Shown here: positions 18,681 to 51,502 of the stretch, in pieces
Position numbering within the stretch: the stretch's first letter is position 1
Layout of the letters: each line of letters opens with the position of its first letter
DNA from: an uncultured bacterium
GTDB lineage: Bacteria; Gemmatimonadota; Gemmatimonadetes; Gemmatimonadales; Gemmatimonadaceae
Reading direction: 5' to 3'
DNA length: 61,597 nucleotides
Assembly: GCA_963978095.1 (NCBI GenBank)
Contig: CAXBQP010000010.1
Span: forward strand, 1-61,597
Notes under the pieces: generated by a model
Told to the model about the DNA's origin: nothing
What the model saw: only the letters and a program-made list of their open reading frames with translations
The model's database searches: none
Program-made: the position numbers and the translations under genes

Positions 18681-19866
18681 GGCGCGTCGCGAGATGCGCG
18701 AGATAGGCGTCGCAGTTGCGGCGCAGCTCACCGAGCGAGTCCCCGCCGAACTTCTCGACGAACGCGTCGGCGAGTACGAGCGCGGTCATCGCCTCGGCGA
18801 TCACCCCCATCGCCGGCACCGCGGTCACATCACTCCGTTCGGCCGCGGCTTCGGCCGGCGCGGCGGTCTTGGTGTCGATGGTGTGGAGGGGGCGCATCAG
18901 CGTGCTGATCGGCTTCATCGCGACTTTGATGATCAGCGGTTCGCCACTCGTCATCCCTCCTTCAAGACCCCCGGCGCGATTGGTCGCCCGACGCACATTG
19001 CCGGTGCGCGGCGATCCGGGGGCCATCGCGATGGCATCGTGGACGTCCGCCCCCGTACGGCGCGCGGTCTCGAAGCCCATGCCGATCTCCACCCCCTTCA
19101 CGGCGGGAATGCTCATCAGCGCCGCGCCCAAGCGGCCATCGAGCTTGCGATCCCAGCTCACGTGCGATCCGAGCCCCACCGGAAGTCCGTCGACAACCAC
19201 CTCACAGATGCCGCCCAGCGTATTCCCCTCTTGCTTGGCGCGATCGATCCGTGCCACCATCTCGGCCTCGGCCGCCGCGTCGAGGGTGCGCAACGGTGAC
19301 CCGGCAGCAGCAGCGTTGATGTCCGTCGGCATCGGATCCGGACGGGTCGCATCGACCCCACCCAGATGCACCACGTGCGAGCCGATGCGCACGTCGAACT
19401 CGGCGAGCAGCCGACGCGCCACCGCGCCCGCCGCCACGCGGGCCGTGGTCTCACGCGCCGACGCGCGCTCGAGGATGTCGCGCGCATCGTCGCGGTCGTA
19501 TTTGAGGACGCCGGTCAGATCCGCGTGCCCCGGGCGTACGCGCGTCACCTGACGCCTCCGGCCCTGGTCCGTCGCGTCTTCGTCGCGCGGCGCGGCGTCC
19601 ATGATGGCTTCCCAGTTCTTCCAATCGCTGTTGCGGATCAACATCGCGATCGGCGATCCCAGCGTCTCGCCGGCGCGCACACCGGAAAGGAACTCGACCG
19701 CGTCGGTCTCGATCTGCATGCGCCGACCACGCCCGTAGCCCTGTTGCCGGCGCGCGAGCTGCGTGTCGATGTCCTGAGCAAGCAGAGGGAGTCCCGCCGG
19801 GACTCCCTCGATGACACTCACCAGCGCCTTGCCGTGCGATTCGCCGGCAGTGACGAAACGGATCAC
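18673..19866 (-). CDS. aroC: Chorismate synthase
   Basis: FVTAGESHG, RPGHAD, ERASARETTARV, SIPAVKGVEIG, GGLEGGMT, MKPIST, ERSD. GTG start overlaps the pilQ stop. Confidence 0.97.
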   Translation of the reverse strand: MIRFVTAGESHGKALVSVIEGVPAGLPLLAQDIDTQLARRQQGYGRGRRMQIETDAVEFLSGVRAGETLGSPIAMLIRNSDWKNWEAIMDAAPRDEDATDQGRRRQVTRVRPGHADLTGVLKYDRDDARDILERASARETTARVAAGAVARRLLAEFDVRIGSHVVHLGGVDATRPDPMPTDINAAAAGSPLRTLDAAAEAEMVARIDRAKQEGNTLGGICEVVVDGLPVGLGSHVSWDRKLDGRLGAALMSIPAVKGVEIGMGFETARRTGADVHDAIAMAPGSPRTGNVRRATNRAGGLEGGMTSGEPLIIKVAMKPISTLMRPLHTIDTKTAAPAEAAAERSDVTAVPAMGVIAEAMTALVLADAFVEKFGGDSLGELRRNCDAYLAHLATRLG

Positions 19867-21746
19867 GGCGTCTTCCCTGCCCGGACCGTCTCGCCGTCGT
19901 CGATGATGCGCGGCGTGATCAGGATGAGCAGATCCTGTTTCCGTTCCACGGTCTCGTTCTCGGAGAAGAGACGACCGATGCCGGGCAGGTTCATCAGGAA
20001 CGGGATCCCGCGCCGATTGCGCGACACCTGCGTCTGCGTCAGGCCGCCGATGACCGCCGTCTCGCCGTCGCCGACGAGCACTTCGTTGCGACTGAAGCGC
20101 TTGTTGATGGTCGGCCCAGCCACCGTCGCGCCCGCGAGCGACTGCTGCTCCGCGTACACGGACATGAGCACCTGATGGTTGGCCGTCACATGCGGCGTGA
20201 CGCGGAGCGTGATGCCGACATCCTGGCGCTGCTGTTGCGGCCCCGACTGCGTCAGCTGTCCGGGAACGGTCGGCGGGGTGAGCAGATACGCGATCTGCGT
20301 GCCGGCGAACAACTCGGCCTCCCGATTGTCGACCGTGGTGGTGCTCGGCTCGGCCTGCACGTCGGAGAGTTGCTGTTCGCTCAGCGCGTCCAGGAACGAG
20401 GTAAGGTTGAACCCGCCCAGCGTCATGTTGTAGATCAACGACAGCGACGAGGTCGACTTGTACGCCCGGCTCGCATTCGCCACGCCGGCGAGTCCGTCGC
20501 CTGAAATATTCACGCGGAAATCGCCCGGCACCGGCGTGTCGCCATTCAATCGCGGCAGCACCGCGTTGCTGAAGGTGTTGGCCGAGCCGAGGTCGTAGCT
20601 GATGCCGAGCTGCTCGGTGCCCGTCCGGTCGACCGCAATGATTTTCGCCTTGATGGCGACCTGCGGCGTGCGCACATCCAGATCCCGGATGTAGTTGGCG
20701 ATGTCCGCCAGCCGCCCCGGCGTCTCGGTGACGATCACGGCGTTGGTCTTCTCGTCGAAGCTGACGACGCCGCGCGAACTGCAGCTCGCCCCGACGCCCG
20801 GGGAGGCAGTCGCTCCAGTCGCCGAACTCCCGCCCGCGCCCGATCCGGCGCCACTCGTGCCGGTGACGACCTCGGAGACCGCCGCCTTCGGCGCACCTCC
20901 TCCGCAGCCAGCGCCCAGGAGCTGGCGCACCGTGGCCGCCATCGTCTCCGCTTTGGCGTAGTTCACCTGGATCACCTGCGTCTGCACCGGTTCCACGCGC
21001 TGCTTGTCCGCGATGTTCGCGTAGCTGTCGACGGTGATGATCCCCGACGGCTCCACGACCAACGAAAGCCCCTGCGATGCCAGGATACTCTTGAGCGCCA
21101 GGTCCCACGGTTGGTTCTTGATGTCCGCGGTCACGAAGCCGTCCACCTGACGGCCCACGACGATGGTACGCCCGCTGAACTGCGCAAAGCTGGTGATGAC
21201 ATCGCGGATGTGCGTTTCCTGGAACGACACCGTGATGCGTCGCTCCGGCGATTGCTGCGGGGCCGGAGCCGCAGGGGCCGCTGGCGACGCGACCGCGGGT
21301 CTCGCACCGAGACTCCAGGTCGCGAAGCGATCGGGCCCTGCCACGGAGATCCGGACATCTTTCTCGCCGCGGACCACGGTGTACTCGTGATCGCCGTCAA
21401 GGTCGAGCACGACGCGCACCACTCCCGGCTTGTACTGCGCGAGTCGCACATTCGTGATGCCGCCGCGAGAGACCTTGTCATACAGGCGCGCGGGGACGCC
21501 GAGGGTGGCGCCACGCAGATCGACGACGATCCGGCGCGGGCTCTCGAGCGTGAAGTCGAACAGGTCGATCGGCCCCTCGACCGCGATGACGACTTCGGCG
21601 CGTCCGGTTCCCGGGGTCACGCTGACCGCGGTGATGCTGCCCGGCGCGTCGTTCCGCACCGTAGGCTCGGCGTCGGCGCGCGGAGCACCGAGGGCGATGA
21701 GCAGGCACGCAGCCGACAGCGCCGCGATGTGACGGACTCGCGTCAT
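19863..21746 (-). CDS. pilQ: Type IV pilus secretin
   Basis: AMIN domain, N0 (IKNQPWDLAL), N3 (DEKTNAVIV), PQVAIKAKI, GITLRVTPHV, GETAVIGGL, IPFLMNLPGIGRLF. Confidence 0.93.
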   Translation of the reverse strand: MTRVRHIAALSAACLLIALGAPRADAEPTVRNDAPGSITAVSVTPGTGRAEVVIAVEGPIDLFDFTLESPRRIVVDLRGATLGVPARLYDKVSRGGITNVRLAQYKPGVVRVVLDLDGDHEYTVVRGEKDVRISVAGPDRFATWSLGARPAVASPAAPAAPAPQQSPERRITVSFQETHIRDVITSFAQFSGRTIVVGRQVDGFVTADIKNQPWDLALKSILASQGLSLVVEPSGIITVDSYANIADKQRVEPVQTQVIQVNYAKAETMAATVRQLLGAGCGGGAPKAAVSEVVTGTSGAGSGAGGSSATGATASPGVGASCSSRGVVSFDEKTNAVIVTETPGRLADIANYIRDLDVRTPQVAIKAKIIAVDRTGTEQLGISYDLGSANTFSNAVLPRLNGDTPVPGDFRVNISGDGLAGVANASRAYKSTSSLSLIYNMTLGGFNLTSFLDALSEQQLSDVQAEPSTTTVDNREAELFAGTQIAYLLTPPTVPGQLTQSGPQQQRQDVGITLRVTPHVTANHQVLMSVYAEQQSLAGATVAGPTINKRFSRNEVLVGDGETAVIGGLTQTQVSRNRRGIPFLMNLPGIGRLFSENETVERKQDLLILITPRIIDDGETVRAGKTP

Positions 21747-22237
21747 TGCGGTCTCCTTGTGGTGTTACTCTTGGCGTCCTTCTTCGGCGTCTTGTCCATC
21801 ACGAGCGTCTGTTGGCGGCTCATGCCGAACTCGTCGACGGCGAAGGTGATGTCTTGTGGTCCGATCTTTGCGACCTTCATGCGGCCGAGTGCTGCACCGA
21901 TCATCACGCGATACGTCTGACCGTTGGATCCGTCGGTGAGGATCGCGACGGAACGTCGCGGCGACTCCGTGTCGTAGATCACGCCGATCAGGGCCAGATC
22001 AGCCAGCAACGGCCGCAGTTCGCCGGACGACATGAGCGACACGAACGGATCGCGGCGCCCCTCGGCGGCATAGCTGAAGACCTCGCGCATGATCACCACA
22101 CCAGTGCTGTCCTTGGCCGGTTCCGCGGCGGCCGCGCGCGGTTTGGCCGGAGTGGCGCGCTGTGCGCGCGACACCGACGGTACGAGGGACACGAGCAGCG
22201 TGGCCAACAGGAGGATCCCGCGCATCAATCGCGTCAT
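21743..22237 (-). CDS. pilP: PilP-like alignment subunit
   Basis: FSY...GRRDPF motif, LALIGVI; position between pilO and pilQ. Confidence 0.8.
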   Translation of the reverse strand: MTRLMRGILLLATLLVSLVPSVSRAQRATPAKPRAAAAEPAKDSTGVVIMREVFSYAAEGRRDPFVSLMSSGELRPLLADLALIGVIYDTESPRRSVAILTDGSNGQTYRVMIGAALGRMKVAKIGPQDITFAVDEFGMSRQQTLVMDKTPKKDAKSNTTRRPQ

Positions 22238-22890
22238 GCGCCACCGTCCTTGGCGGCGCCCGCGTCAGGGCGGGAAGCACGCTTGGGCTTTGGCTTCGCC
22301 TTGGGCGGTGCCGTGCGCACGACCGCCGTTTGCAGTTCGAAGGTCGCGACGAGGGTCTGTTTGCCCGGCGTCACCTTGGCCGCGGTAGCCCCGGTCGGCA
22401 GGGCGAGCATCAGGTTCACGGGCGACACGATCCGCGGGAGCGATCCGATGTTGGCGAGCACCGCGGCGATATCGTGATAAGGGCCGGTCAACCGCATGCG
22501 ATACCGATGCGTGTCGAACAATTCTCCCTCGACCACCGGGAGCGGCTCGACCGTGCCGATGTCGAGATTCGCCCGACGCGCCGAGTTGGAGATCTGGTCG
22601 ATGAGTGCAGAGACTTCCGCGCCGACCGGCACCAAGGTGCGCAGGGTGGCGAGATCGGCGCGACTGCGATCCGTGTTCGCGGTGATCTGCTTGGTGTTGC
22701 CTTTGGCAATCTCCGCCTTGGCGAGCCGGTTCAGGCTGTCCACGGTATCGAGCCGAGCGCGCAAGTCATGGATCTCCAAGCGCTTGGGCTCGAAAATTCC
22801 ATACCAGTAGCCGGCGGCGGCGGCAACGCCGAGGAAGCCGAGGAAGAACAGCCGCTGGCCGCGCGGATCCGTCGGAAGTCCGAGTGCCAT
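22234..22890 (-). CDS. pilO: Type IVa pilus alignment protein PilO
   Basis: One TM, coiled coil, LVP..AEV..LIDQI, GPYHDIAAVLANIGSLPRIV. Confidence 0.9.
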   Translation of the reverse strand: MALGLPTDPRGQRLFFLGFLGVAAAAGYWYGIFEPKRLEIHDLRARLDTVDSLNRLAKAEIAKGNTKQITANTDRSRADLATLRTLVPVGAEVSALIDQISNSARRANLDIGTVEPLPVVEGELFDTHRYRMRLTGPYHDIAAVLANIGSLPRIVSPVNLMLALPTGATAAKVTPGKQTLVATFELQTAVVRTAPPKAKPKPKRASRPDAGAAKDGGA

Positions 22891-23642
22891 CAGGGACGCT
22901 CCAAGGCGCGGAAGGGCGCGCGCCGGATGGCCGTGGAATCCGGCTGCTGGTACCGCAGTTCGAGCGTGAACTGCGTGGCTTCCTTGCCCGCCGGCTGGAC
23001 GGTGACCAACTCGGTCTTCACCAGTTGCACGTCCTGCAGGAAGGGAGACGCCTCAAGCTGCTTCCAGAAGCGGGTGATTGCCTGCACATCCACGGTCTGC
23101 CCGATGATCTTGAGCTTGAGCACCTGCGATGCCTTGAGCGCACTGTCGGCTTCCGCCGCGATCTTGGACGGGTCCGCACCCGTGAAGAGCCCGGCGTCGA
23201 TCTCCGGGGTGAGCGAAGCCACCGGACTGGTCTGCTGCACCAGGATCAACCAGGTGTAACTCGGCAAGGCACGACTGATTTCTTCCATCACGTGCGGCCA
23301 GACGAATCGGGATCCGTCGATCGTGTTCACGATCCGCAACTGGCGCGCCACCGAGTCCCGCACGGCGGACGCCACCGCCCGCTGTTTGATCACTTGCGCG
23401 AAGCGCAGGGAATCGCCGTGGGCCTTGCTCTCGCGGGCTTTGACCTCCTCGAAGCTCCTGCCCTGGAAGTACCACATACCCACCACCGCTCCGACACCGA
23501 CCAGAAAGAGGGTGGTGGCGATGACGAAGAGGCGGTCGATGTGGAAGCGCGACGCCAGTTCGCGGAACGCATCACCGACTTCCATCTTGGCGGCCGACGG
23601 CTGCTTGCGTTTCGCGCCGGGCAGGAGATTGATCTCGATCAT
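22890..23642 (-). CDS. pilN: Type IVa pilus alignment protein PilN
   Basis: MIEINLLP motif, one TM, WPHVMEEISRALPSYTWL, LEASPF. Confidence 0.92.
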   Translation of the reverse strand: MIEINLLPGAKRKQPSAAKMEVGDAFRELASRFHIDRLFVIATTLFLVGVGAVVGMWYFQGRSFEEVKARESKAHGDSLRFAQVIKQRAVASAVRDSVARQLRIVNTIDGSRFVWPHVMEEISRALPSYTWLILVQQTSPVASLTPEIDAGLFTGADPSKIAAEADSALKASQVLKLKIIGQTVDVQAITRFWKQLEASPFLQDVQLVKTELVTVQPAGKEATQFTLELRYQQPDSTAIRRAPFRALERP

Positions 23643-23649
23643 CGGCGGC

Positions 23650-24693
23650 TCAGGCGCTCTGGCGCAAGGCCAGGCCGATGGGCAACATCAGCAGCGGCGC
23701 GACCTCATCGATGACGAGGCCGTCGAGCGCCCCGTCCGCGATCTGCAGATTCCCGAGGGAGTTCGCATGCTCCATCGGGATGCCGAGGCGGTCGCCGAGC
23801 AGATCGTCGAGCCCCGGAATCCGCGAACCGCCACCGCACAGGAACATGGTCCGCAGGGCGCCCGCGCTGCGCGAGTTGGTGGCGAGAAAGGCGATGGCGC
23901 GATCGATGCCCGTGACGATCTCATCGCCGCGCACCGCCACCACCGCGTCGAGCGGCTCGTTTCGGTCGTAGCCTTGGATCATCGCGGCCGCGTCGTCGAG
24001 CGACAGCCCGTGGTCCCGTTGCAGGTCCTCGCGGAACTTGCGTGTGCCCACCGTGATGTCGCGGGTGAGGATCGGCACGCCGTCGTCGAGGATGTTGATG
24101 TTCGTGACTTCGTGCCCGATGTTGAGCAACCCGACCAGCCCGGCGAGCGCATCCGGATGGTTCAGCTCGAAGGCGTTGTGGAGCGCGAAGGCGTCCACAT
24201 CGACCACGGACGGTTCCAGCCCGGATTCGCTCAGCACGCGCATCTTGGACTCCACGAGTTCCCGCTTCGCGGCGACGAGCAGCACCTGCATCTCGGGCCC
24301 GGTCCCCTCGGGATCGAGAATCTGGAAATCCAGCTCGACCGATTCCATGTCGAACGGCACATGCTGCTCGGCCTCCCAGCGCATGAGCTCACGGGCCTGA
24401 TGCTCGTTCACCCGCTCGATCTGGATCTTCTTGATGATGACGTCGCGCCCGCCGACGGCGACCACGACCTGCTTGGTCGCGACCCCCGCTTCGGTCAGCG
24501 CGGCCGCAATCGCCTCCGACACGATGCTCGGGTCCATGATCTCCCCGTCGACGATCGCGTCGGCCAGCAAGGGCATGATGACGACCTTGGTGAGCATCGG
24601 TGTGCGCGTCCCGTGTTCGATCACGGCCACTTTGATGAGGCCGGAACCGATATCGAGACCCACCGTGCTCTGTTTGCGGCCGAAAAGCGGCAT
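23650..24693 (-). CDS. pilM: Type IVa pilus actin-like protein PilM
   Basis: VGLDIGSGLIK, EAEQHVPF, VLLVAAK, LCGGGSRIPGL, IGLALR. Confidence 0.94.
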   Translation of the reverse strand: MPLFGRKQSTVGLDIGSGLIKVAVIEHGTRTPMLTKVVIMPLLADAIVDGEIMDPSIVSEAIAAALTEAGVATKQVVVAVGGRDVIIKKIQIERVNEHQARELMRWEAEQHVPFDMESVELDFQILDPEGTGPEMQVLLVAAKRELVESKMRVLSESGLEPSVVDVDAFALHNAFELNHPDALAGLVGLLNIGHEVTNINILDDGVPILTRDITVGTRKFREDLQRDHGLSLDDAAAMIQGYDRNEPLDAVVAVRGDEIVTGIDRAIAFLATNSRSAGALRTMFLCGGGSRIPGLDDLLGDRLGIPMEHANSLGNLQIADGALDGLVIDEVAPLLMLPIGLALRQSA

Positions 24694-24861
24694 GCGAAAG
24701 GGACGGAGATCCCGGCAGGCCCCCGACCGGCTTTCCGGCCTCAGGACCAACCAGGCACAACCAAGAACGGCCCAACCCGGCGCACCAGCGGCCCGATGGG
24801 ACTCCCTGCCACCATGACACGAGCGGACAGGCGGGGAGGTAACGAACCCGCGGTGACACGT

Positions 24862-26640: not shown

Positions 26641-27015
26641 TCACTGGCAGATCGGCTCGCCTTCCGTCGTGGCGCCACCACCCAGCGTAATCCTGCAGGT
26701 CTTGGACGTGGAGGCGTGTGTGGCGGTCGCCGCCCACCCACTCGACGTCACGCTGCCGATCGTGACATTGACCCCCGTCGACGCGCGGTAGCCCGTGCCC
26801 AGTGCCGTGGTGCTGGAGGCATAGGTGCTGTTGTTGTCGGAGAAATACGCTTCCTGCGCGGTGATCAAGTTGCGCAGGTCCGATTTCATCGACGCCAAAT
26901 AGGCCTTCTCCTTGGTATTGGCGAACTTGGGAATCGCGATCGACGCGAGAATCCCGATGATGACCACCACGATGAGCAGTTCGATCAGGGTGAAACCTTT
27001 GCGGACTGAACGCAT
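26641..27015 (-). CDS. pilA: Type IVa pilin, copy 2 (124 aa)
   Basis: MRSVRKG|FTLIELLIVVVIIGILASIAIPKF, C-terminal Cys pair, GGAG RBS. Confidence 0.9.
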   Translation of the reverse strand: MRSVRKGFTLIELLIVVVIIGILASIAIPKFANTKEKAYLASMKSDLRNLITAQEAYFSDNNSTYASSTTALGTGYRASTGVNVTIGSVTSSGWAATATHASTSKTCRITLGGGATTEGEPICQ

Positions 27016-27161
27016 GACACGAACTCCGTTTCGGGGAAATTCCCACACTCGCTGAGCGTGGGGGCTAACAGCGAAGGTTGACTGAGTACGGGAGGCGCCA
27101 ACCTTCAGAATTCCAGAACTGTACAGCAACGATACAGCAGGTCGTGCGGCTCACGCAAGGA

Positions 27162-27197
27162 CGAGCGGGCTGGACGACATGTCGTCCAGCCCGCTCG
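27162..27197 (-). terminator. Perfect 36-bp palindrome after pilin copy 1 (terminator or mRNA-stabilising hairpin)
   Basis: CGAGCGGGCTGGACGACATGTCGTCCAGCCCGCTCG is its own reverse complement. Confidence 0.75.
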
Positions 27198-27229
27198 CGA
27201 CTCACAGCCCCAACCAGGTCATGCCAAGC

Positions 27230-27604
27230 TCAGCTGCAGTTCGGCTCGCCTTCCGCGGTGGCCGAACCACCGAGGGTGATCGTGCAGGTCTTCGAGGTCG
27301 AGCCGTGCGTGGCCGTGGCCGACCAGCCGGTCGACGACACGCCGCCGATCGTGACCGTCACGCCGGTCGACGCCTTGTAGGTGGTGCCGAGGGCAGTGGT
27401 CGACGAAGCGTACGTGCTGTTGTTGTCCGAGAAGTAGGCTTCCTGCGCGGTGATCAGGTTGCGCAGATCCGACTTCATCGACGCGATATAGGCCTTCTCC
27501 TTGGTGTTCGCGAACTTCGGGATCGCAATCGCGGCCAGAATGCCGATGATCACAACGACGATCAGCAGCTCGATCAGGGTAAAGCCCTTACGCTTGGTCA
27601 ACAT
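27230..27604 (-). CDS. pilA: Type IVa major pilin, copy 1 (124 aa)
   Basis: MLTKRKG|FTLIELLIVVVIIGILAAIAIPKF, C-terminal Cys pair, GGAG RBS, sigma-54 promoter upstream. Confidence 0.93.
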   Translation of the reverse strand: MLTKRKGFTLIELLIVVVIIGILAAIAIPKFANTKEKAYIASMKSDLRNLITAQEAYFSDNNSTYASSTTALGTTYKASTGVTVTIGGVSSTGWSATATHGSTSKTCTITLGGSATAEGEPNCS

Positions 27605-27701
27605 GCCGAGACTCCGTTGAACGGTGGTTTGGATTCCAACGAGAAGAAGACGACCAGCAACGGGAGAGGTTTCACCCGCGGCGTGTCCTTGAAACGGGTA
27701 C

Positions 27702-27717
27702 AGCATTTGTCATACCA
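27702..27717 (-). promoter_or_regulatory. Sigma-54 (-24/-12) promoter of pilin copy 1
   Basis: Minus strand TGGTATGACAAATGCT = GG-N10-GC; a GAFTGA activator (pilR) is encoded in the locus. Confidence 0.75.
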
Positions 27718-27741
27718 CGTGGAACGTACAACCTAACCTGT

Positions 27742-27760
27742 TATAAGACAATATCTTATA
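27742..27760. promoter_or_regulatory. AT-rich palindrome upstream of the pilin promoter (candidate DNA-bending protein or regulator site)
   Basis: TATAAGA-CAATA-TCTTATA inverted repeat about 25-45 bp upstream of the -24 box. Confidence 0.45.
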
Positions 27761-27866
27761 CCAGAACCGCCACCGCCGCAACCGCTAACGGTGCCGCGGA
27801 ACGCGGGGGACGTTGCAATCTGCGAGACCCGGCCGGCCCCGCTTCCGCCGGATCGTCAGGGCTCCA

Positions 27867-29624
27867 TCAGGGCTTGGCCGAGCGATGCGAGCCGGTCCAA
27901 CGGACCGTCGGGTCGGTGGAGTCGGTAGCCACGAGGGCGCTGTCGGCGACCTCGATCATGAAATCAAAGGCTCGGCGGTACATGCCGTCGGCGATCGCCA
28001 CGCGGGCCTGTGCTCGCGCGGCGTGCCACTGCCCCAACTCCAGGTGGCAGGACACAAGCCCCGCCCGCGCGAGCGGGGACTCCGGCTCGATCGCCAACGC
28101 GGCCTGATACTCCGGAATCGCCGCCTGGCAGATATGCGCCTCGCGATACTTGTGCGCGAGGTCGATCCGCACGGCATGGTACCCGGGAAGCAGCGCGATC
28201 GCCGTGCGCCATTCGCGCTCGGCCTCGAGCGGGCGATGCTGCTCCCACAAGCGGCCGCCGAGGGAGTAGTGACTGCGGAAGTTGAGCGGAGCATCGAGCG
28301 CAAGCGTCTCGAACACATGATCATTGTCCCGCCAGGTGCGCTGTCGTTCCGCGCTGTGCGCGGTCCCCGCCATCACGAGCACGGCGAACCCACCCGCGAG
28401 CGCGAGCTTCCCGGCGCGCGGGGCGTTCGCGAGCCGTCGGACGAGCCATGCCCCCGCGACGCCGACCGCGAGCATCGCGCCCACGCTGGGCAGCAACAGC
28501 GTGCGCTCCGCGATCAGGATTCCGGTGGGCAGCAGGATGTTGGCCACCGGCACCAGGCAGATGGCGATCCACGCGATCCCGAACGAGACGATCGGCGCTC
28601 GGCGCACGCAGATGATCGCGAGCAGCCCCGTGCAGAGCAGTAGCAGGATGCCGGGCAGCAGTTCCGGATGCCAGCTCGTGTGCACGTGCACCAGCGCGGG
28701 TGAGTAATCGGCGTACAGGCGTGCCGGCCAGAGCAGCAGGCGTCCGAATTCCGGCACCAGGCCGAGCATCACGACCGCGCGTTGTCCCGTGGACAGATGC
28801 TGCAGCGAGGGATGTGGGGTGTCGCCGGCCACATCCACCAGCACGGCGGTACGGATCGCGAGGAACAGCGTGGCGAGCAGGGCCAGCTTCAGCAGATGCG
28901 CCGAGCCTTCGTCCAGGCGCTCCCGCCACGGGCGGGGGTCATGCACGATCGTGAGTTCCACGGCCATCAGCAGGGCTGGCAACACGATCACATGTTCCTT
29001 GCAGAACATGCCGACCAGGTAGAGCGATGCCACTGCGATGGCGTCGCCCGTGCGCAGCGGCAGCCCGTCGCGTCGCGCGCGGACATACCGGGCCGTCGCC
29101 AGGAGCAGCAGCAGCGCGGACCAGAGTTCCGCCTGGCCGACGACGTTCCCGACCGCCTCGACGTGCACCGGATGGACGGCGAAGAGCGCACCCGCGATGG
29201 TGGCGGCGACGCGCGGCATCACCTGCAGCGCGAGCCAATACATCACGACGCACACGGCGGCATACAGCGCGATGTTCACCGCGTGGAAGACGAGCGGGCG
29301 TCCCGCTCCCGCTGCCCATTGCATCGCATACAGCACGATGATCAGGGGGCGATACAGCGCCGCCCCGCGCGCGTTGGGCCAGTAGGTCTCACCGAACCGA
29401 TGCCACAGGTCCCGCAGGGTGTGCACCCGCGCGTTCTCGACGATGATCCACCGATCGTCGTACGCGAAGCCGTTGTGGAGCCCGGTGATGGAGGCCGCAA
29501 TCGCGAGGCAGGCGATGAGCACCGCCAACGGGCGCCAATCACGGGGATCGTCCACGCCGGATGGGGCGACGTGGGCCATGGCGCCAACGGCATGGGGCGC
29601 GTCACCGCCCCCGCGTGTGCTCAC
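27867..29624 (-). CDS. TMTC/DUF1736-like GT-C glycosyltransferase with C-terminal TPR repeats
   Basis: GFAYDD loop after TM1, YRPL, FHAVN, LFAVHPVHVEAV...GQAEL, CKE, WPARLYADY, IAERTLLLPS, W+DNDHVF then TPRs. GTG start overlaps the GT2 stop. Confidence 0.8.
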   Translation of the reverse strand: MSTRGGGDAPHAVGAMAHVAPSGVDDPRDWRPLAVLIACLAIAASITGLHNGFAYDDRWIIVENARVHTLRDLWHRFGETYWPNARGAALYRPLIIVLYAMQWAAGAGRPLVFHAVNIALYAAVCVVMYWLALQVMPRVAATIAGALFAVHPVHVEAVGNVVGQAELWSALLLLLATARYVRARRDGLPLRTGDAIAVASLYLVGMFCKEHVIVLPALLMAVELTIVHDPRPWRERLDEGSAHLLKLALLATLFLAIRTAVLVDVAGDTPHPSLQHLSTGQRAVVMLGLVPEFGRLLLWPARLYADYSPALVHVHTSWHPELLPGILLLLCTGLLAIICVRRAPIVSFGIAWIAICLVPVANILLPTGILIAERTLLLPSVGAMLAVGVAGAWLVRRLANAPRAGKLALAGGFAVLVMAGTAHSAERQRTWRDNDHVFETLALDAPLNFRSHYSLGGRLWEQHRPLEAEREWRTAIALLPGYHAVRIDLAHKYREAHICQAAIPEYQAALAIEPESPLARAGLVSCHLELGQWHAARAQARVAIADGMYRRAFDFMIEVADSALVATDSTDPTVRWTGSHRSAKP

Positions 29625-30376
29625 GCGAACAGATTGAAGCGGATGATGTGACCGATGGCGGCAACGCCGTCCCGCCAGCCGATCTTCTTCCCCTCGGCGT
29701 AGGTGCGGCCGGAGTAGGAGATCGGCACCTCGAAGATCCGGGCGCGGCGCTTGGCCAGTTGCGCCGTGACCTCGGGCTCGAACCCGAAGCGTTCCGACGT
29801 GAGCGTGAGCGACCGGGCGAGATCGCCCGTGATCGCCTTGTAGCACGTCTCCATGTCGGTCAGGTTCAGGTTGGTGAGCATGTTGCTGAACGTGGTCAGC
29901 ATGAAGTTGCCCACCGAGTGCCAGAAGTAGAGCACGCGATGCGGCCCGCCGAGGAATCGGGAGCCGAACACCGCGTCGGCACGTCCCGCGATGATGGGAT
30001 CGAGCATCGCCGGCCAGTCGGCCGGATCGTATTCGAGGTCGGCGTCCTGCACGATCACGACATTGCCGGTGCTCGCCGCGAGTGCCGTCCGGATGGCGGA
30101 TCCCTTGCCGCGGTTGCGGTCATGCAGGATCAGCACGTCGATCCGCCCGTCTCGCTTCAGTTGCTCCAGGATCTCGCGCGTTCCATCGGTCGAACAGTCA
30201 TCGACACAGATGACTTGCTGCCGCACCGGCACCGACCGCACTTGCTCGAGGATCGTCGCGATGGTGTTGCGCTCGTTGTACACCGGAATGAGCACGGACA
30301 GCACGAGGCTCTCCACGGGCATCGGAGTGAGGCCGCGCATGCGGCTCGCGGGCTGAGCGATTGACGACGATGACAT
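29621..30376 (-). CDS. GT2 polyprenol-phosphate glycosyltransferase (DPM1/Ppm1-like)
   Basis: SVLIPVYNE, VDDCSTDGT, NRGKGSA, QDADLEYDP, GSRF, LTDMETCYK, FGFEPE, EVPISY.GR...EGKKIGWRDG. Start may be slightly downstream. Confidence 0.9.
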   Translation of the reverse strand: MSSSSIAQPASRMRGLTPMPVESLVLSVLIPVYNERNTIATILEQVRSVPVRQQVICVDDCSTDGTREILEQLKRDGRIDVLILHDRNRGKGSAIRTALAASTGNVVIVQDADLEYDPADWPAMLDPIIAGRADAVFGSRFLGGPHRVLYFWHSVGNFMLTTFSNMLTNLNLTDMETCYKAITGDLARSLTLTSERFGFEPEVTAQLAKRRARIFEVPISYSGRTYAEGKKIGWRDGVAAIGHIIRFNLFA

Positions 30377-30406
30377 AGGCGGTCGGGAGGATCCGTGAAA
30401 TCTGCG

Positions 30407-31879
30407 TCAGGAGCCGGCGTCGCGCGATGGCTGTGACGAGACCGGAGCAGGACGCAGCGCGCGGTACCGTGCGCAGAGGCGCCGATACCGGCCGATCCAT
30501 GGGAGTTCTCGCGGCAGGCGATCGAGCGGATTCGGCCCCCGCCGCTGCTCGATGCACTGGATCAGCGCCTCGGTGGCGGGGATATGGGCGGCATCGGCCC
30601 CCGCGGCGATCCGGCGCGACACGCGCGGGACAGCGGTGAGGTTCAACGCCGCGAGCACGAGGGCGATGGCCACGACCGGTCGCCGCCACGCGGCCCAGTC
30701 CGCGCGGCGCGCGCACCGCGTGAGTGCGAGCCCAAGCCCGACGGTCAATAGCGCCAGCAACGGGGTGTTGTAATACGCCACCCGGACGTCGGGGGCCGCG
30801 ACGGGCGGATGACGTGACACCAGAAGCGCGGCGAAGAGCGTGAGCGCGGCCAACGCGAGGCTGGCGCGCAGGAGCCATCGGGCGTGTCCACCGATGCGGG
30901 CCAGCAGCAGTCCCGCGCATGCGACGACGATCCCCCAGCTGACGCCGAGTCCTCCGGCAAAGAGGGAGAAGGAGTCCAGGAGCCACACCGCGGCACCGCG
31001 CCACACCTCGGGACGCATCAGGGCCGCCGGATCCACCGTCCCCGACTGCAGAGACCAGTTCACCTCCTGATGCACCGCCGCGCGGATCAGCGTCGGGCCG
31101 ACCCACATGTCGTAGACGGTCCCGGCGCCCAGGGCCAGCATGAGCGCGAGGACGTACCTCATGTCCTCGGAGCGTCGATTCCCGGCAGCCCTGGCGTCGA
31201 GCCACAACAGGACCGCGAAGGCCAGCACGAAGAACGTCCCCTGCCGGTCGGCGAGCACGAGGACGGTGGCGGTGACGCCGAGCGTGAGCGCGCGCCGGCG
31301 TCGGTCACGACGCGAGCGAAGTGGCGTCTCGGGTGCGCGAGAGGCGTCGTCCACCACACGCACCAGCTGCCAGGCCAGCATCAGGACGGCGGCGGCGGCC
31401 AACGACTTGGCGGTCCGGAAGTGGCGGGCCCCGAGCACCGTGCTCGCCGAGGACACGAAGAGCAGCGCCGGAACGAACGCCGCGCGCCCGAGTTGCGGCG
31501 CCGCCGTGCGCAGCCATGTCACGGTGACGCCGACAATCAGTCCGCACGCGAGCAGATGCATGGCGGAGAGCGGGAGAAACCAGCCGGTCCGCCGGAACCA
31601 CGCGGCGGCCACGCGGGCATCGAACCAATCGGTGGCGTAACTCAGTTCGCGTGCCTGGTAGAGTCCGAAGTCGTTCCGCTGCACGTCGAAGATCTGTGCC
31701 ACCGGGGCGCGCCCGTCGAGCGCGTTCGCGAGATACGTGGCGGACTCCATGTGCACGAAGGGAAACGCGCGCACCAGCCAGGCGGCGCTCACGGCGAGCG
31801 CAAGCATCGCGACCAGCGCCGCGACGAGCCCCGCGGTGCGGGGTGGCGCGCCGATCGGGCAGGCGCTGCGCGCGCTCAC
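30407..31879 (-). CDS. Polytopic membrane protein of unknown function (possible GT-C fold)
   Basis: About 10-11 hydrophobic segments, with a polar loop after TM1 (HMES...NDFGLYQARELSYATDWFD). GTG start overlaps the pilR stop. Confidence 0.65.
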   Translation of the reverse strand: MSARSACPIGAPPRTAGLVAALVAMLALAVSAAWLVRAFPFVHMESATYLANALDGRAPVAQIFDVQRNDFGLYQARELSYATDWFDARVAAAWFRRTGWFLPLSAMHLLACGLIVGVTVTWLRTAAPQLGRAAFVPALLFVSSASTVLGARHFRTAKSLAAAAVLMLAWQLVRVVDDASRAPETPLRSRRDRRRRALTLGVTATVLVLADRQGTFFVLAFAVLLWLDARAAGNRRSEDMRYVLALMLALGAGTVYDMWVGPTLIRAAVHQEVNWSLQSGTVDPAALMRPEVWRGAAVWLLDSFSLFAGGLGVSWGIVVACAGLLLARIGGHARWLLRASLALAALTLFAALLVSRHPPVAAPDVRVAYYNTPLLALLTVGLGLALTRCARRADWAAWRRPVVAIALVLAALNLTAVPRVSRRIAAGADAAHIPATEALIQCIEQRRGPNPLDRLPRELPWIGRYRRLCARYRALRPAPVSSQPSRDAGS

Positions 31880-33258
31880 CCGTCGACGCCGAAGCGCGAG
31901 AGCTTGCGGTGCAAGGTCGAGGGATCGATCCCCAAGACTTCCGCTGCCCGCGTCTTGTTGCCGTGCTCCGCCTGCAACACCCACATGATGTAGGCGCGCT
32001 CGATGGTCTCGAGCGACGGGTTCGCGCTGCCACGATCCGACAGCAGCGATTCAGGGGTCGCCTCCGTGATGCGCTCGGGAAGCGCGGCGACGTCAATGAC
32101 GTCGCCCGTGGTCAGGATGACCGCGCGCTCCAAGGCGTTTTCCAGTTCGCGCACATTGCCGGGCCACCGGTACCGCTGCAACAGCGCGAGCGCCTCCGCG
32201 CTGAGGTGTTTGACCGGCTCCTGCCGCGACTCGGCGCGTCGCGCAAGGAAGGCGTCCGAGAGCAGCGGGATGTCGTCCGCACGCTCGCGCAGCGGCGGGA
32301 CGTGAATGGCGATCACGTTCAACCGATAAAACAGGTCACGCCGGAAGGTCCCGCGGCGAATCTCCTCCTCGAGATCACGATTCGTCGCCGCAATCACACG
32401 CGTGTCGATCGGCACCGCCTGCGTCGCGCCCACGGGGATCACCTCACGGTGCTGCAGCACGCGCAGCAACTTCACCTGCGTCGCCGGCGTCGTCTCCCCG
32501 ATCTCGTCGAGGAAGAACGTGCCCCCGGCGGCGGCGGTGAACAATCCGTCGCGGTCCTTCACGGCGCCGGTGAAAGCGCCACGCTGATGTCCGAAGAGCT
32601 CGCTCTCGAGCAGTCCCTCCGGCAGCGCGCCGCAGTTGATGGAGAGGAACGATCCGCTGTTGCGAGCGGACAGCTCGTGGATGTACCGGGCGACCACTTC
32701 CTTGCCCGTGCCCGACTCGCCCATCACCAGCACCGTGCTCTCCGTGGGCGCGACCGCCGCGGCCAGCCGCAAGACCTCCAACCACTTGCGGTTCTGTCCG
32801 ATCGGCGCGGCCGTGGACGCGTGGTCGCGCCGATGAATCTCGCGTTTGAGGGAACGGTTCTCCACGCGCAGCCGCCGGTGTTCGGCGGCACGGCGCAGAA
32901 TCGCCAGCAGATCGTCGTTGCGGAACGGCTTCTGGATGTAATAGAACGCGCCCGCATTGACGGCCTGCATGGCCGTCTCGAGCGAGGCTTGGGCGGTCAT
33001 CAGAATCACCGGGGTGTCCGCATCGTGCGCCTTGGCCGCATCGAGAATGTCGACACCACTCACCTGCGGCATTCGGACATCGGTCAGAATGATGTCCGGC
33101 GAAAGCGCGGCAACCTGCGCGAGCCCGGCCTTCCCCCCGTGCGCCAGATGGGGCACGAACCCGGCATTCCGCAGCAGGATGCCGAGGGATTCGAGGATGC
33201 TCTGTTCGTCGTCGACCACGAGCACGGTGGGCAGTGGCGGCTGATGCATGGCGTTCAC
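31876..33258 (-). CDS. pilR: Sigma-54-dependent response regulator (PilR-like)
   Basis: Receiver (VDDE, TDVRMP), GESGTGKE, ESELFGH, GAFTGA, FLDEIGE, FRRDLFYRLNV, WPGNVRELEN, Fis HTH. Confidence 0.88.
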   Translation of the reverse strand: MNAMHQPPLPTVLVVDDEQSILESLGILLRNAGFVPHLAHGGKAGLAQVAALSPDIILTDVRMPQVSGVDILDAAKAHDADTPVILMTAQASLETAMQAVNAGAFYYIQKPFRNDDLLAILRRAAEHRRLRVENRSLKREIHRRDHASTAAPIGQNRKWLEVLRLAAAVAPTESTVLVMGESGTGKEVVARYIHELSARNSGSFLSINCGALPEGLLESELFGHQRGAFTGAVKDRDGLFTAAAGGTFFLDEIGETTPATQVKLLRVLQHREVIPVGATQAVPIDTRVIAATNRDLEEEIRRGTFRRDLFYRLNVIAIHVPPLRERADDIPLLSDAFLARRAESRQEPVKHLSAEALALLQRYRWPGNVRELENALERAVILTTGDVIDVAALPERITEATPESLLSDRGSANPSLETIERAYIMWVLQAEHGNKTRAAEVLGIDPSTLHRKLSRFGVDG

Positions 33259-34949
33259 GAGAGATTCGGTGCCCCGGACCACGTCATCACAACGGGGTCG
33301 AAGGGGAGCAGGATGGTGAAGCGCGTCCCGGCTGGCGACGAATCCACCAACACGACGCCGCGGTGTGCTTCAACGGCCCGATGCGTGATCGAGAGCCCGA
33401 GCCCGGTGCCACCGACTTTGTTCGTGGCGAACGGCTCGAAGAGCCGGTTCTGGACATCGCTGGCGATGCCAGGTCCGGCGTCGGCGACCTGCACGCTGAG
33501 GGCGCCGTCGGGGAATGGCACGCCGCGTGGCACCTGATCCGGCGTGATCACCGACGCCGTGACGGTGACCTCGGTGCCCGCGCGCGTCGCTTGGAGCGCA
33601 TTCAGGACGAGGTTGAACACCGCGCGGTGCAGCAGATCCTCATCGCCGAACAGCGGCAACGGGTCATCGGCGAGGCGTACCGTCAGACGGGCGTCCGGCA
33701 TCCGCGACGGATGCTCTCCCGCCAGGGCACAGGCGGCACGGACGACGGCGGCCAGATCCACGCGATCACGCCGCGCGATCCGGACACGCGCGAAGTCGAG
33801 GAACTCCGTGAGGAGCGACGACAGGCGCGCCGATTCACGCACCACGAGCGCCCCGAGCGTCCGCTCGTCCTTCGAGGCGGTCGCGCGCGTCGCGAGTTGC
33901 TCGACCGCGCTCTGGATGGACGCCAGTGGATTCTTGATCTCATGCGCGAGCGACGCCGACAACTCAGCGACCGCCTCGAGCCGTTGCGCGCGCAGATGCA
34001 ACTGCTCGAGCCGCTTCTCGCCGGAGATGTCCTGGAAGATCGCGGTGAAGTTGCGGCGGATCCCCTCGGCGTCGCCGGCCGCCACCGAAATGGAGATGCC
34101 CACCGGCCGCGGTTGCGTATCGTGACGGAGTTCGAATTCGGCGCGCGTGACCCCCTGCCCCGACGCGATGGCGGCCTCGAGCAGTGCGGCGAACTCCGGC
34201 ACGGTGGTGCGCAGCGCGTTGAGCGCGGGCCGATTCAGGAATGCGGTGAAATCGAAGGGCAGCACCTTCGACGCCGCCGCATTGGCGAAGAGCAGGACTC
34301 CGCGGTCGTTGATGGTCAGGATGCCGGCCCGGATGTTGGCGAGGATATCGCGTTCCCGCAGTCGGACCGATGCGAGTTCGGCGGCGAGCGCTTCGCGTCC
34401 TTCCCCTGCCGCCTGCAAACGGGCGCTGATGACGCCGGTGCCGATCGCCACGGCCGAGAAGACGGCGATCTGCAACAGCAGACTCAACTCCAACGGGCCC
34501 GGACGCACGAGCAAGGCGTCGGCCGCATACACCACGCTGCCAAGCAAGGCGATCAGCACCGCGCCCCCGCCCGGCAGCAGCAGGGCGGCCGCGGCGTTGA
34601 CCGGGATATAGAGCGCCGCGAACTGTGACGCCGCTCCACCGGTGACGTGCACGATGCCGGTGATCACCAGCACGTCCACGACCAACTGACCGTACAGGAA
34701 CCCTCGCGTCAGCGGTTTTCGATTAACTTCCGTCCAGAGGAAGGAGACGGCGGTGACAAAGAGCGCGCCGACGAAGCAGAGTGTCGCAATGAGCGTTTTC
34801 TCTGAATCCGCGATGAGCCACTGGAAGACGGCGGCGAGGAAGATCGCGCTGGCCAGCATCAGACGGCTGACGTAGACCCACCGGACGAGTCGCCGAGGGG
34901 TCAGCACCGCAAGCCGTTGGCTTTCGTTCTTGGGCTGGGAAGTTCGCAC
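33255..34949 (-). CDS. pilS: Sensor histidine kinase (PilS-like)
   Basis: Six-TM N-terminus (VHVTGGAASQFAALY), PAS-like region, LAHEIKNPL, NLVLNA, DAGPG, FEPF, GTGLGL; coupled to pilR. Confidence 0.88.
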   Translation of the reverse strand: MRTSQPKNESQRLAVLTPRRLVRWVYVSRLMLASAIFLAAVFQWLIADSEKTLIATLCFVGALFVTAVSFLWTEVNRKPLTRGFLYGQLVVDVLVITGIVHVTGGAASQFAALYIPVNAAAALLLPGGGAVLIALLGSVVYAADALLVRPGPLELSLLLQIAVFSAVAIGTGVISARLQAAGEGREALAAELASVRLRERDILANIRAGILTINDRGVLLFANAAASKVLPFDFTAFLNRPALNALRTTVPEFAALLEAAIASGQGVTRAEFELRHDTQPRPVGISISVAAGDAEGIRRNFTAIFQDISGEKRLEQLHLRAQRLEAVAELSASLAHEIKNPLASIQSAVEQLATRATASKDERTLGALVVRESARLSSLLTEFLDFARVRIARRDRVDLAAVVRAACALAGEHPSRMPDARLTVRLADDPLPLFGDEDLLHRAVFNLVLNALQATRAGTEVTVTASVITPDQVPRGVPFPDGALSVQVADAGPGIASDVQNRLFEPFATNKVGGTGLGLSITHRAVEAHRGVVLVDSSPAGTRFTILLPFDPVVMTWSGAPNLS

Positions 34950-35028
34950 GAGGCTCCAGTATTGCAAATCGCAACAGATTTAGCATGGGGTTGGCCGTGG
35001 CGAAATGCAAGAGACAGGGGACACCACC

Positions 35029-48043: not shown

Positions 48044-48086
48044 CAGCCTGCGCCCCCCACACGAACAGAGCCCCCGATGACCACCC

Positions 48087-51085: not shown

Positions 51086-51115
51086 GAGAGGGGACCGCCG
51101 CGAGCCGCGGGGGAG

Positions 51116-51502
51116 CTACATCGGTGCTGCGAGCACCTGCCGGACCGCGCTCAGCAGTTGCGCTTCGGTGAACGGCTTGAGCAATGTCGCATTCGCACCG
51201 ACCTGCGCCGCCACGGACAGATAGAGATCCGCCGAGCCCATTCCCCCGCCGGACATCGCGATGATCGGCAGCGTCGGATGGGAACGTCGAAGCTCGATGA
51301 TGGTCTCGACCCCTTCGCGGTCCGGCATCACGAGATCGGTCAGCACCAGGTCGAATCGCCCGGACTGCATCGCCTCGATCGCCAACCGCCCGTCGTTGAC
51401 GGCGAGCACATCGAACCCGGCGCGGTCGAGCACGAGCTCGAGCGACTTCAGAACCGACGGTTCATCATCGACCAGCAGAATGCTGATGTGCGAGGCTTCC
51501 AT
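51116..51502 (-). CDS. Single-domain response regulator (CheY-like receiver)
   Basis: VDDE, LTDLVMP phospho-Asp, AMSGG, LLKPF; no output domain. Confidence 0.92.
   Translation of the reverse strand: MEASHISILLVDDEPSVLKSLELVLDRAGFDVLAVNDGRLAIEAMQSGRFDLVLTDLVMPDREGVETIIELRRSHPTLPIIAMSGGGMGSADLYLSVAAQVGANATLLKPFTEAQLLSAVRQVLAAPM

Follow-up and report, generated by a model that had tools for sequence, protein, structure and literature searches.

A candidate pilin O-glycosylation island with a GT-C/TPR membrane protein in the type IV pilus locus of an uncultured Gemmatimonadota bacterium

Here, we describe a group of genes embedded in the type IV pilus locus of an uncultured Gemmatimonadota bacterium (Gemmatimonadaceae, the name that homologues also bear in their sources), presumably an inhabitant of soil or freshwater, and weigh its potential to glycosylate the pilins encoded beside it. 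The stretch of DNA analysed (61,597 nt of contig CAXBQP010000010.1, assembly GCA_963978095.1; hereafter the window) belongs to a contig with a G+C content of 67% and carries one such locus, which, judging from its open reading frames (ORFs) and Pfam matches, runs on the minus strand from position 34967 down to 19863; all genes of the locus named below lie on that strand. Between pilR (31876-33282), encoding a sigma-54 activator and response regulator, and two copies of the major type IV pilin gene (copy 1, 27230-27604; copy 2, 26641-27015) lie three genes. They encode a membrane protein (30407-31879; gene call P0271, 490 amino acids) whose start is immediately 3′ of the pilR stop, a glycosyltransferase of family 2 (GT2; 29621-30376, 251 amino acids), and a protein that combines a membrane domain of the glycosyltransferase-C (GT-C) type with tetratricopeptide repeats (TPRs; 27867-29624, 585 amino acids in its longer form). 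This order had been claimed in the original prediction, made from the sequence alone, and is confirmed by ORFs and Pfam, with matches to Response_reg (2.6e-27), Sigma54_activat (2.3e-67) and HTH_8 in PilR, PF00535 (E 7.8e-32) in the GT2, TPR_19 (residues 500-539, E 6.8e-08) in the GT-C/TPR protein, and N_methyl in pilins 1 and 2 (2.2e-09 and 2.6e-09, respectively). Taken together with the evidence that follows, these genes probably constitute an island for pilin O-glycosylation that uses a polyprenol-phosphate-linked sugar as donor, with pilin 1 as the proposed acceptor.

The GT2 protein is a candidate polyprenol-phosphate sugar synthase of the DPM1/GtrB/ArnC-like kind, an assignment by family resemblance that follows from its sequence matches in the PDB, namely the Pyrococcus dolichyl-phosphate-mannose (Dol-P-Man) synthase (5mlz, 1e-13, query residues 20-233), ArnC (9hwj, 1.2e-11) and GtrB (5ekp, 9e-09). 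It lacks a C-terminal membrane domain and is about as similar to Dol-P-Man synthase as to ArnC, GtrB and PpgS. Because its best NCBIfam matches (AglJ, 1.6e-35; dolichyl-phosphate hexose transferase, 1e-18; PpgS, 4e-17; ArnC, 2.7e-14) all fall below the curated cutoffs, no specific orthology can be claimed. The GT2 and GT-C/TPR genes share the predicted GTGA overlap at 29624-29621. The start codon of the latter is nonetheless not settled between this overlap and an ATG at 29579, which is used by the public gene call P0001 (570 amino acids) and would leave a 42-nt gap in place of the overlap; residues 1-24 of the longer form are disordered in the structure model.

The N-terminal domain of the GT-C/TPR protein is confidently predicted to adopt a GT-C fold. 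In the structure model (predicted local distance difference test (pLDDT) 92.9, predicted template-modelling score (pTM) 0.91), residues ~23-435 were matched by a wide VIA-align search to the GT-C structures AglB (3waj, Z 21.6, 326 residues aligned), STT3B (Z 19.7), Pmt1-Pmt2 (6p2r_B, Z 19.6, 350 aligned), ArnT (5f15, Z 18.8), Pmt4 (Z 18.5), ALG12 (Z 18.4) and PglB (Z 17.7), and residues ~443-570 to TPR domains, that of OGT among them. This search superseded a Foldseek comparison with the PDB, in which TPR proteins dominated and GT-C matches reached a template-modelling score of ~0.4; a whole-protein alignment profile run against PDB sequences likewise returned TPR proteins only among the 60 matches listed. 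The modelled TPR helices span residues 434-568, and the membrane part comprises 11 long membrane-type helices if the helix at 93-106 is taken as a loop helix. We infer that the TPR domain faces the non-cytoplasmic side.

Residues expected of an active enzyme of this class are strongly conserved in an alignment (A1) of 78 sequences, made up of the window protein and 77 relatives at 33-52% identity. The catalytic-type DD loop that had been claimed together with the TPRs is present directly after the first transmembrane helix, as D56 (78/78) and D57 (76/78; numbering of the 585-residue form). For the animal enzymes TMTC1-4, Eisenhaber et al. (PMC7801869, Table 4) assign the residues of seven motifs, M1 to M7, to donor and metal binding. 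When motif positions were matched by order and loop, rather than by alignment to TMTC sequences, M1 (DD) corresponds to D56 and D57, M2 (YRP) to Y91 (74/78), R92 (78/78) and P93 (78/78), M4 (KE) to K209 (77/78) and E210 (76/78), and M7 (ER) to E373 and R374 (77/78 each), while M5 (D-W) is retained as D/E-Y, with an acidic residue in 70/78 (57 D, 13 E) and Y307 in 77/78. In M3, R-x-D is replaced by Q-x-E, and no M6 (PxxP) was found in the 78 sequences by pattern search. Of the seven motifs, five (M1, M2, M4, M5 and M7) thus appear to be kept in their core residues.

In animal TMTCs, DUF1736 is the loop between transmembrane helices 7 and 8. Matches to TMTC_DUF1736 occur at E<=1 in 30/78 members of the family (best E 1e-05), and matches to PMT_2 in 24/78 (best E 1.3e-08). 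Among 27 relatives scanned singly, the best DUF1736 score, in the equivalent loop, was 25.8 bits, under the cutoff of 27, and six exceeded the PMT_2 cutoff of 26.1 bits. A language-model atlas links the protein to bacterial PMT_2 clusters (0.99) and to a chordate DUF1736 cluster (0.92, 189 shared features), which we treat as a lead only; no TMTC structure appears in the Foldseek or VIA-align PDB match lists. Since the motif cores are kept and DUF1736 is sub-threshold in relatives and absent from the protein itself, we file it as a GT-C enzyme of the PMT/TMTC neighbourhood with a TMTC-like architecture, and not as a demonstrated TMTC member; the original description as TMTC/DUF1736-like is borne out in part. 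Proteins of this type are abundant, forming 22,061 sequence clusters at E<=1e-10. A literature search, covering few subscription journals, returned no defined substrate and no link to pilins for bacterial TMTC-like enzymes.

The polytopic membrane protein noted earlier between pilR and the GT2 gene is indeed present, but instead of an accessory protein or flippase it is, according to its predicted structure (pLDDT 87.4, pTM 0.89), a second GT-C-fold transferase from a small unnamed family. It has neither a Pfam nor an NCBIfam match, and a search of 5.8 billion proteins yielded no more than 16 homologues; E45, D55, D65 and D70 are invariant in the 16 sequences and are candidates for the catalytic acidic residues. 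In the wide VIA-align search, its top 20 matches were all lipid-linked-sugar or GT-C-type membrane enzymes (counted as 18 GT-C glycosyltransferases and three glycosylphosphatidylinositol-transamidase chains), led by ALG12 (9s6t, Z 16.9, 341 aligned), ArnT (5f15, Z 15.8, 380 aligned), AglB (Z 14.7) and Pmt4 (Z 14.5), and the next match dropped to Z 6.2. The proposal that the three genes form a module for glycosylation from a lipid-linked sugar is supported.

The slot between pilR and the GT2 gene varies among related genomes. It is empty in some genomes (L027, L028 and L033), and in most relatives (L023, L029, L030, L032, L038, L045 and others) it holds one or two genes for PMT_2-like GT-C proteins of ~520 amino acids, whose 'VGVFWDDGVYL' loop carries an invariant DD and of which 10/19 match PMT_2; the 16-member family fills it in the window genome and one close relative. 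A relationship between the second GT-C and this PMT_2-like slot family was considered and rejected (hhalign probability 0.2%). BLAST against the relatives' slot ORFs gave only short N-terminal matches of 29-74 residues (best E 1.8e-4), none of which extends beyond the first ~76 residues; this stretch precedes the gene-called start and overlaps the end of pilR. Between the PMT_2-like slot family and the TMTC-like family, hhalign gave a weak signal (probability 16.5%). Cassette-like turnover of this slot is expected of a surface-glycan locus, and the differing number and family of GT-C genes among related genomes fits a surface glycan under diversifying selection; the variable GT-C content suggests a lineage-specific glycan. 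As a separate observation, genomes of a sister family that lack a TMTC-like gene carry between pilR and the pilins an oppositely oriented ORF for a protein of ~1030 amino acids with a spermine/spermidine-synthase domain (E ~1e-13; L128:4364-7489 on the minus strand and L130:8922-12017 on the plus strand).

The stop codon of the GT-C/TPR gene lies 262 nt from the start of pilin 1. That this linkage should be present in other genomes had been set as a condition beforehand, and it is found at both ranks surveyed: among 19 loci from other genomes of the genus, 17 have a major pilin gene directly 3′ of the GT-C/TPR gene (one of the 17 is cut by a contig end, with the prepilin start still visible), and across the phylum a major pilin gene lies within 1.3 kb of the GT-C gene in 55 of the 66 determinable loci. 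The phylum survey took one genome per species, and its best 80 matches gave 77 distinct loci, all from Gemmatimonadota, including Longimicrobiales, with GT-C identities from 59% down to 30%; 11 of the 77 had flanks too short to judge and were excluded. A genome tally for the GT-C/TPR query, 38/41, includes one unpublished genome (G006), which enters none of the other results.

Linkage takes two forms. A pilin gene follows on the same strand within 1.3 kb downstream in 42/77 loci, 34 of which have a GT2 gene directly upstream of the GT-C gene, as do 19/19 loci of the genus. At 13/77 loci the pilin gene is instead divergent and upstream, and these have no GT2, mostly no pilR, and one to three GT-C copies (two in eight of them); one to three tandem copies per locus is also the range overall. 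Across the two layouts, linkage persists to ~33% GT-C identity. Because neither divergence to about one-third identity nor the duplication of genes nor a switch between layouts has broken the synteny, we argue that it reflects a functional tie. In a tree of 103 GT-C rows, pilin-linked rows occur throughout, and orphans fall mostly into one nested clade of six. The window genome has its own paralogue of this kind (G000:C26:3336-4955, L040; 37% identity), which belongs to the well-supported orphan clade and has no pilin, GT2 or pilSR nearby.

The mature forms of the two pilins are 87% identical, and the best NCBIfam match of pilin 1 is PilA_Myxo (2.1e-16, under the cutoff). As had been stated, exactly 28 of the C-terminal 66 residues of pilin 1 are Ser/Thr, and the motifs VTVTI, ATAT and TCTIT are present; pilin 2 has 24 in the same C-terminal span. 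Compared with a Ser+Thr background of 0.117 in the 37 predicted proteins of the window, the 28/66 of pilin 1 has a binomial P of ~3e-10. Among 74 distinct pilins of the phylum, the Ser/Thr fraction of the globular part runs from 0.18 to 0.47 (median 0.29), and such richness, as far as sequences tell, is a trait of the whole pilin lineage. At position 72 of the mature pilin, within 'KASTG', at least 90% of 66 phylum pilins (alignment A4) share a Ser, which is a candidate for either an acceptor or a structural residue. The bacterial N-glycosylation sequon is D/E-X-N-X-S/T, and a genus-level pilin motif, D-N-N-S-T (mature residues 52-57 in pilin 1 of the window), fits it. Complex prediction with the GT-C/TPR protein (78 rows) and the mature pilin (66 rows) scored 0.00 in both runs, which, having been made with no controls, is evidence neither way.

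Two features bear on the transcription of pilin 1. A TGG-N9-TGCT element (TGGTATGACAAATGCT; 27702-27717, minus strand) lies 5′ of the gene and is promoter-like in the sigma-54 manner, this spacing being sigma-54 promoter geometry. Contigs cover pilin 1 in 4/4 metatranscriptome runs from one study; those at 27217-27692 span the whole gene and, in three runs, end at 27692, 11 nt 3′ of the GC in the element. This end offers no more than a weak hint, since contigs are no guide to where a transcript begins or ends and RNA libraries may contain DNA; if the hint holds, pilin 1 would be transcribed from its own PilR-type promoter, apart from the transferase genes. Pilin 2 was covered only by contigs at 95-99% identity, and the transferase genes by one 202-nt (30191-30392) and one 21-nt RNA-library piece, the uncovered stretches being uninformative. 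A search for the canonical sigma-54 sequence TGGCAC-N5-TTGC with <=2 mismatches gave 54 matches against ~60 expected, none of them upstream of the pilins. Just 3′ of the pilin 1 stop, between the two pilin genes, the window contains a 16-bp perfect inverted repeat (27163-27196) that likely forms a transcript-end hairpin, though it has no clear T-run.

How the island might work can be outlined as follows. At the inner face of the inner membrane, the GT2 would load a sugar from a nucleotide sugar onto polyprenol phosphate, and a flippase encoded elsewhere would turn the lipid-linked sugar to the periplasmic side. There, the GT-C/TPR protein would transfer the sugar to Ser/Thr of the periplasmic globular domain of the pilin, while the latter is still anchored in the inner membrane and not yet assembled; the DD loop and the YRP, KE and ER residues would serve in the transfer, and the TPR domain would hold the protein. 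Fold, conserved residues and gene linkage, along with the precedent of TfpW, lead us to propose this step. The second GT-C may extend the glycan or serve other sites. The transferase genes would be expressed within the pilS-pilR string, and the pilins from their own promoter or promoters.

That precedent is close. According to a preprint on the group IV enzyme of P. aeruginosa (bioRxiv 10.1101/2020.04.19.049825), TfpW has 646 amino acids and 11 transmembrane helices, carries DDX in its first periplasmic loop and ends in a TPR domain on the periplasmic side, with OGT as the best TPR match and ArnT as the best template; in several genera the gene adjoins pilA, and the enzyme draws on a polyprenol-phosphate pentose from the decaprenyl-phosphate-arabinofuranose pathway. 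The original prediction had set a TMTC-type system against TfpW. This contrast was overdrawn, given that TfpW, as described there, is itself a GT-C enzyme with a DD loop and TPRs encoded beside pilA, and at the level of mechanism the opposition fails because the predicted architecture and the logic are the same. Both are pilin-adjacent GT-C proteins of ~600 residues with DD in loop 1 and, as predicted for the window protein, a cytoplasmic N-terminus, ~11 transmembrane helices and periplasmic TPRs; ArnT is among the closest templates of each, and a polyprenol-phosphate monosaccharide donor and Ser/Thr acceptors on the pilin, described for TfpW, are predicted here. They differ in that a donor GT2, dependent on a nucleotide sugar, is encoded beside the GT-C here, whereas TfpW uses a pentose pathway derived from phosphoribosyl pyrophosphate and encoded elsewhere in the genome. 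Moreover, the window has its transferase genes in the pilSR string, 5′ of the pilin, and a second GT-C family is added. The island is likened to TfpW by described architecture and gene position, an analogy and not a claim of sequence homology. The general principle of a pilA-adjacent GT-C enzyme with TPRs that draws on a lipid-phosphate sugar is already known from TfpW; the island most likely varies on this theme with enzymes of a PMT/TMTC-like family, and is not a new kind of system.

TMTC1-4 form CAZy family GT105. In comparison with these animal enzymes, as characterized in PMC7801869, the window protein has DD, YRP, KE, D-[WY] and ER at the presumed motif positions, a FAVHPVH sequence where human TMTC3 has FAVHPIH, and a predicted architecture of the same kind, with 11 transmembrane helices followed by luminal or periplasmic TPRs. 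A DPM1-like donor synthase is likewise present here. The differences are an unmatched DUF1736, Q-x-E at M3, no M6 found, only about four TPRs, and a pilin as the proposed acceptor, as opposed to the cadherin domains modified by TMTCs. It is a rather unlikely proposition that the enzymes are true bacterial TMTC-type O-mannosyltransferases with the type IV pilin as dedicated substrate. Mannose as the sugar, acceptor sites on beta-strands and a eukaryote-like character of the pathway are likewise conjectural.

Resemblances to other systems are partial. PglL/TfpO enzymes are of the Wzy_C/O-antigen-ligase type and transfer preassembled oligosaccharides linked to undecaprenyl diphosphate; no Wzy_C/O-antigen-ligase domain was found by Pfam in the locus proteins scanned. 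They do modify pilin Ser/Thr in the periplasm, and tfpO (PilO) is also found beside pilA (bioRxiv 10.1101/2020.04.19.049825). With the three-component Gtr and Arn systems, as presented in PMC11194591 and PMC11127046, the island shares the pairing of a GT2 polyprenol-phosphate sugar synthase with one or more GT-C transferases acting outside the cytoplasm; in contrast to them, it has no flippase gene in the locus, its GT2 lacks the C-terminal transmembrane helices of GtrB and ArnC, its presumed acceptor is a protein, and its GT-C carries TPRs. The PMT family (GT39), paired with Ppm1/Dpm1 in fungi and actinobacteria, shares the GT-C fold (Z 19.6 to Pmt1-Pmt2 and 18.5 to Pmt4), a DD or DE loop, Ser/Thr acceptors and a DPM1-like GT2 that makes its polyprenol-phosphate-mannose donor. 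PMTs differ in having a MIR domain in a luminal loop, which is unmatched here, and no C-terminal TPRs (PMC7759382).

Several observations weigh against pilin glycosylation by this island. Of the determinable phylum loci, 11/66 have no pilin within 1.3 kb with both flanks seen, including two with a pilin 2.6-3.1 kb away and one with an adjoining minor-pilin-like gene, and in two genomes of the genus (G015 and G010) the pair of GT2 and GT-C genes is kept with no prepilin motif within ~8 kb. The linked loci are kin from a single phylum, and hence represent conserved synteny and not 55 independent events. No flippase gene (GtrA, ArnE/F or MATE) was found among the locus genes scanned, and the genome's sole GtrA_DPMS_TM match lies on a different contig (C3:125450-125791). 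The TfpW motif YX6PFX7P of periplasmic loop 4 is found by pattern search in 0/78 family members, and the EmbC form, YX6PX5P, in 2/78. The DUF1736 label originally given to the GT-C/TPR protein is not confirmed, as Pfam returns only TPR families for it even at E<=10, with no DUF1736, PMT_2 or MIR. Finally, a 97% complete genome of the same genus, G009, has no match to the GT-C/TPR query, and yet its pilin, 75% identical, has 24 Ser/Thr in its last 66 residues. Ser/Thr richness had been noted alongside the original proposal; because the G009 pilin is as rich without a detectable enzyme, composition is independent of it, and we rejected richness as a marker of glycosylation. The G009 pilin gene (L127, G009:C2:82000-100000, 7995-8345) is itself an orphan, with no pilS, pilR, GT2 or GT-C within ~8 kb.

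Some of the same facts can be accommodated by supposing that the module modifies another envelope target (minor pilins, PilQ, exopolysaccharide or lipid A/lipopolysaccharide) and that its place in the pilus locus reflects shared PilS-PilR control. The typical targets of ArnC/ArnT- and GtrB/GtrC-type pairs are lipid A or polysaccharides, the GT2 has ArnC among its best matches, and the atlas cluster nearest to the second GT-C bears the automatic name "ArnT-like glycosyltransferase". The transferase genes, moreover, continue from pilR and not from the pilins, the GT2/GT-C pair occurs without an adjoining pilin in the two congeners mentioned, and minor-pilin-like genes are conserved close by. Against this, it is the major pilin gene that stays beside the GT-C gene through rearrangements, including the 13 divergent layouts without GT2, TPRs on the periplasmic side point to a protein as the acceptor, and TfpW, the only characterized enzyme of such architecture, modifies pilin according to the preprint. 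On balance, we regard a different envelope target as unlikely.

Still less probable, in our judgement, is that the GT-C/TPR protein acts as a general periplasmic O-glycosyltransferase for Ser/Thr-rich or unfolded stretches, in the manner of PMTs, and that the pilin is simply its most abundant client. Relatives that exceed the PMT_2 cutoff, fold matches to Pmt1/2 and Pmt4 about equal to those with other GT-Cs, the very large size of the family, and the existence of pilin-less orphan paralogues, one of them in the window genome, are consistent with such a generalist; tight pilin linkage and tandem GT-C copies (up to three) point instead to a dedicated, co-evolving substrate, and animal TMTC-type TPR enzymes are substrate-selective (PMC11292533). 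A homologue bears the name "Tfp pilus assembly protein PilF" in its source, and the TPR part weakly matches a PilW model (E 0.0068), which would agree with a non-catalytic, PilF/PilW-like pilus assembly factor next to an unrelated GT2. We consider this highly improbable, as the 410-residue N-terminal domain has a predicted GT-C fold with catalytic-loop residues kept in 74/78 to 78/78 sequences, and a GT2 gene adjoins at every one of the 19 genus loci. O-glycosylation of the major pilin is the reading we favour.

Pilin glycans affect phage susceptibility, adhesion and the surface chemistry of the pilus. If the enzymes were true TMTC-type O-mannosyltransferases dedicated to the pilin, a bacterial family with tens of thousands of sequence clusters would gain its first defined client, and the O-mannosylation of animal cadherins would have a prokaryotic counterpart on another beta-sheet protein of adhesion or filament formation. 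Sets of GT-C genes that vary from one to five per locus would then write strain-specific pilus glycans. As the candidate acceptor is small, abundant and easily purified, and a donor synthase is encoded along with it, the substrate, the sugar and the sites are directly testable.

The remainder of the locus is that of a type IV pilus system. Upstream of pilR, pilS (33255-34967) encodes a sensor histidine kinase with 6TM_PilS (4.9e-09), PAS, HisKA and HATPase_c matches; it is placed 5′ of pilR in related loci too, and pilR is 72-80% identical across the loci of the genus. The ORF list and Pfam place a minor-pilin-like ORF and then a PilX-like ORF 3′ of pilin 2, and minor-pilin-like genes near the locus are likewise kept in related loci. 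Further on lie pilM, pilN, pilO, a pilP-sized ORF and the secretin gene pilQ (19863-24750). In many related loci, a second, shorter pilS-like kinase gene (~30% identity to the C-terminal half of PilS) follows just 3′ of the pilins, accompanied by a second pilR-like activator with 41-46% identity; the pair is found in L055, L100, L106, L111, L114 and L117, and a pilS-like fragment in L025, L029, L031 and L035, while the window locus is without it. Elsewhere in the window, at 45048-51502, four head-to-tail and partly overlapping ORFs each encode ~500 amino acids; the fourth has no Pfam match, the other three have HATPase_c histidine-kinase domains, and a single-domain response regulator comes next.

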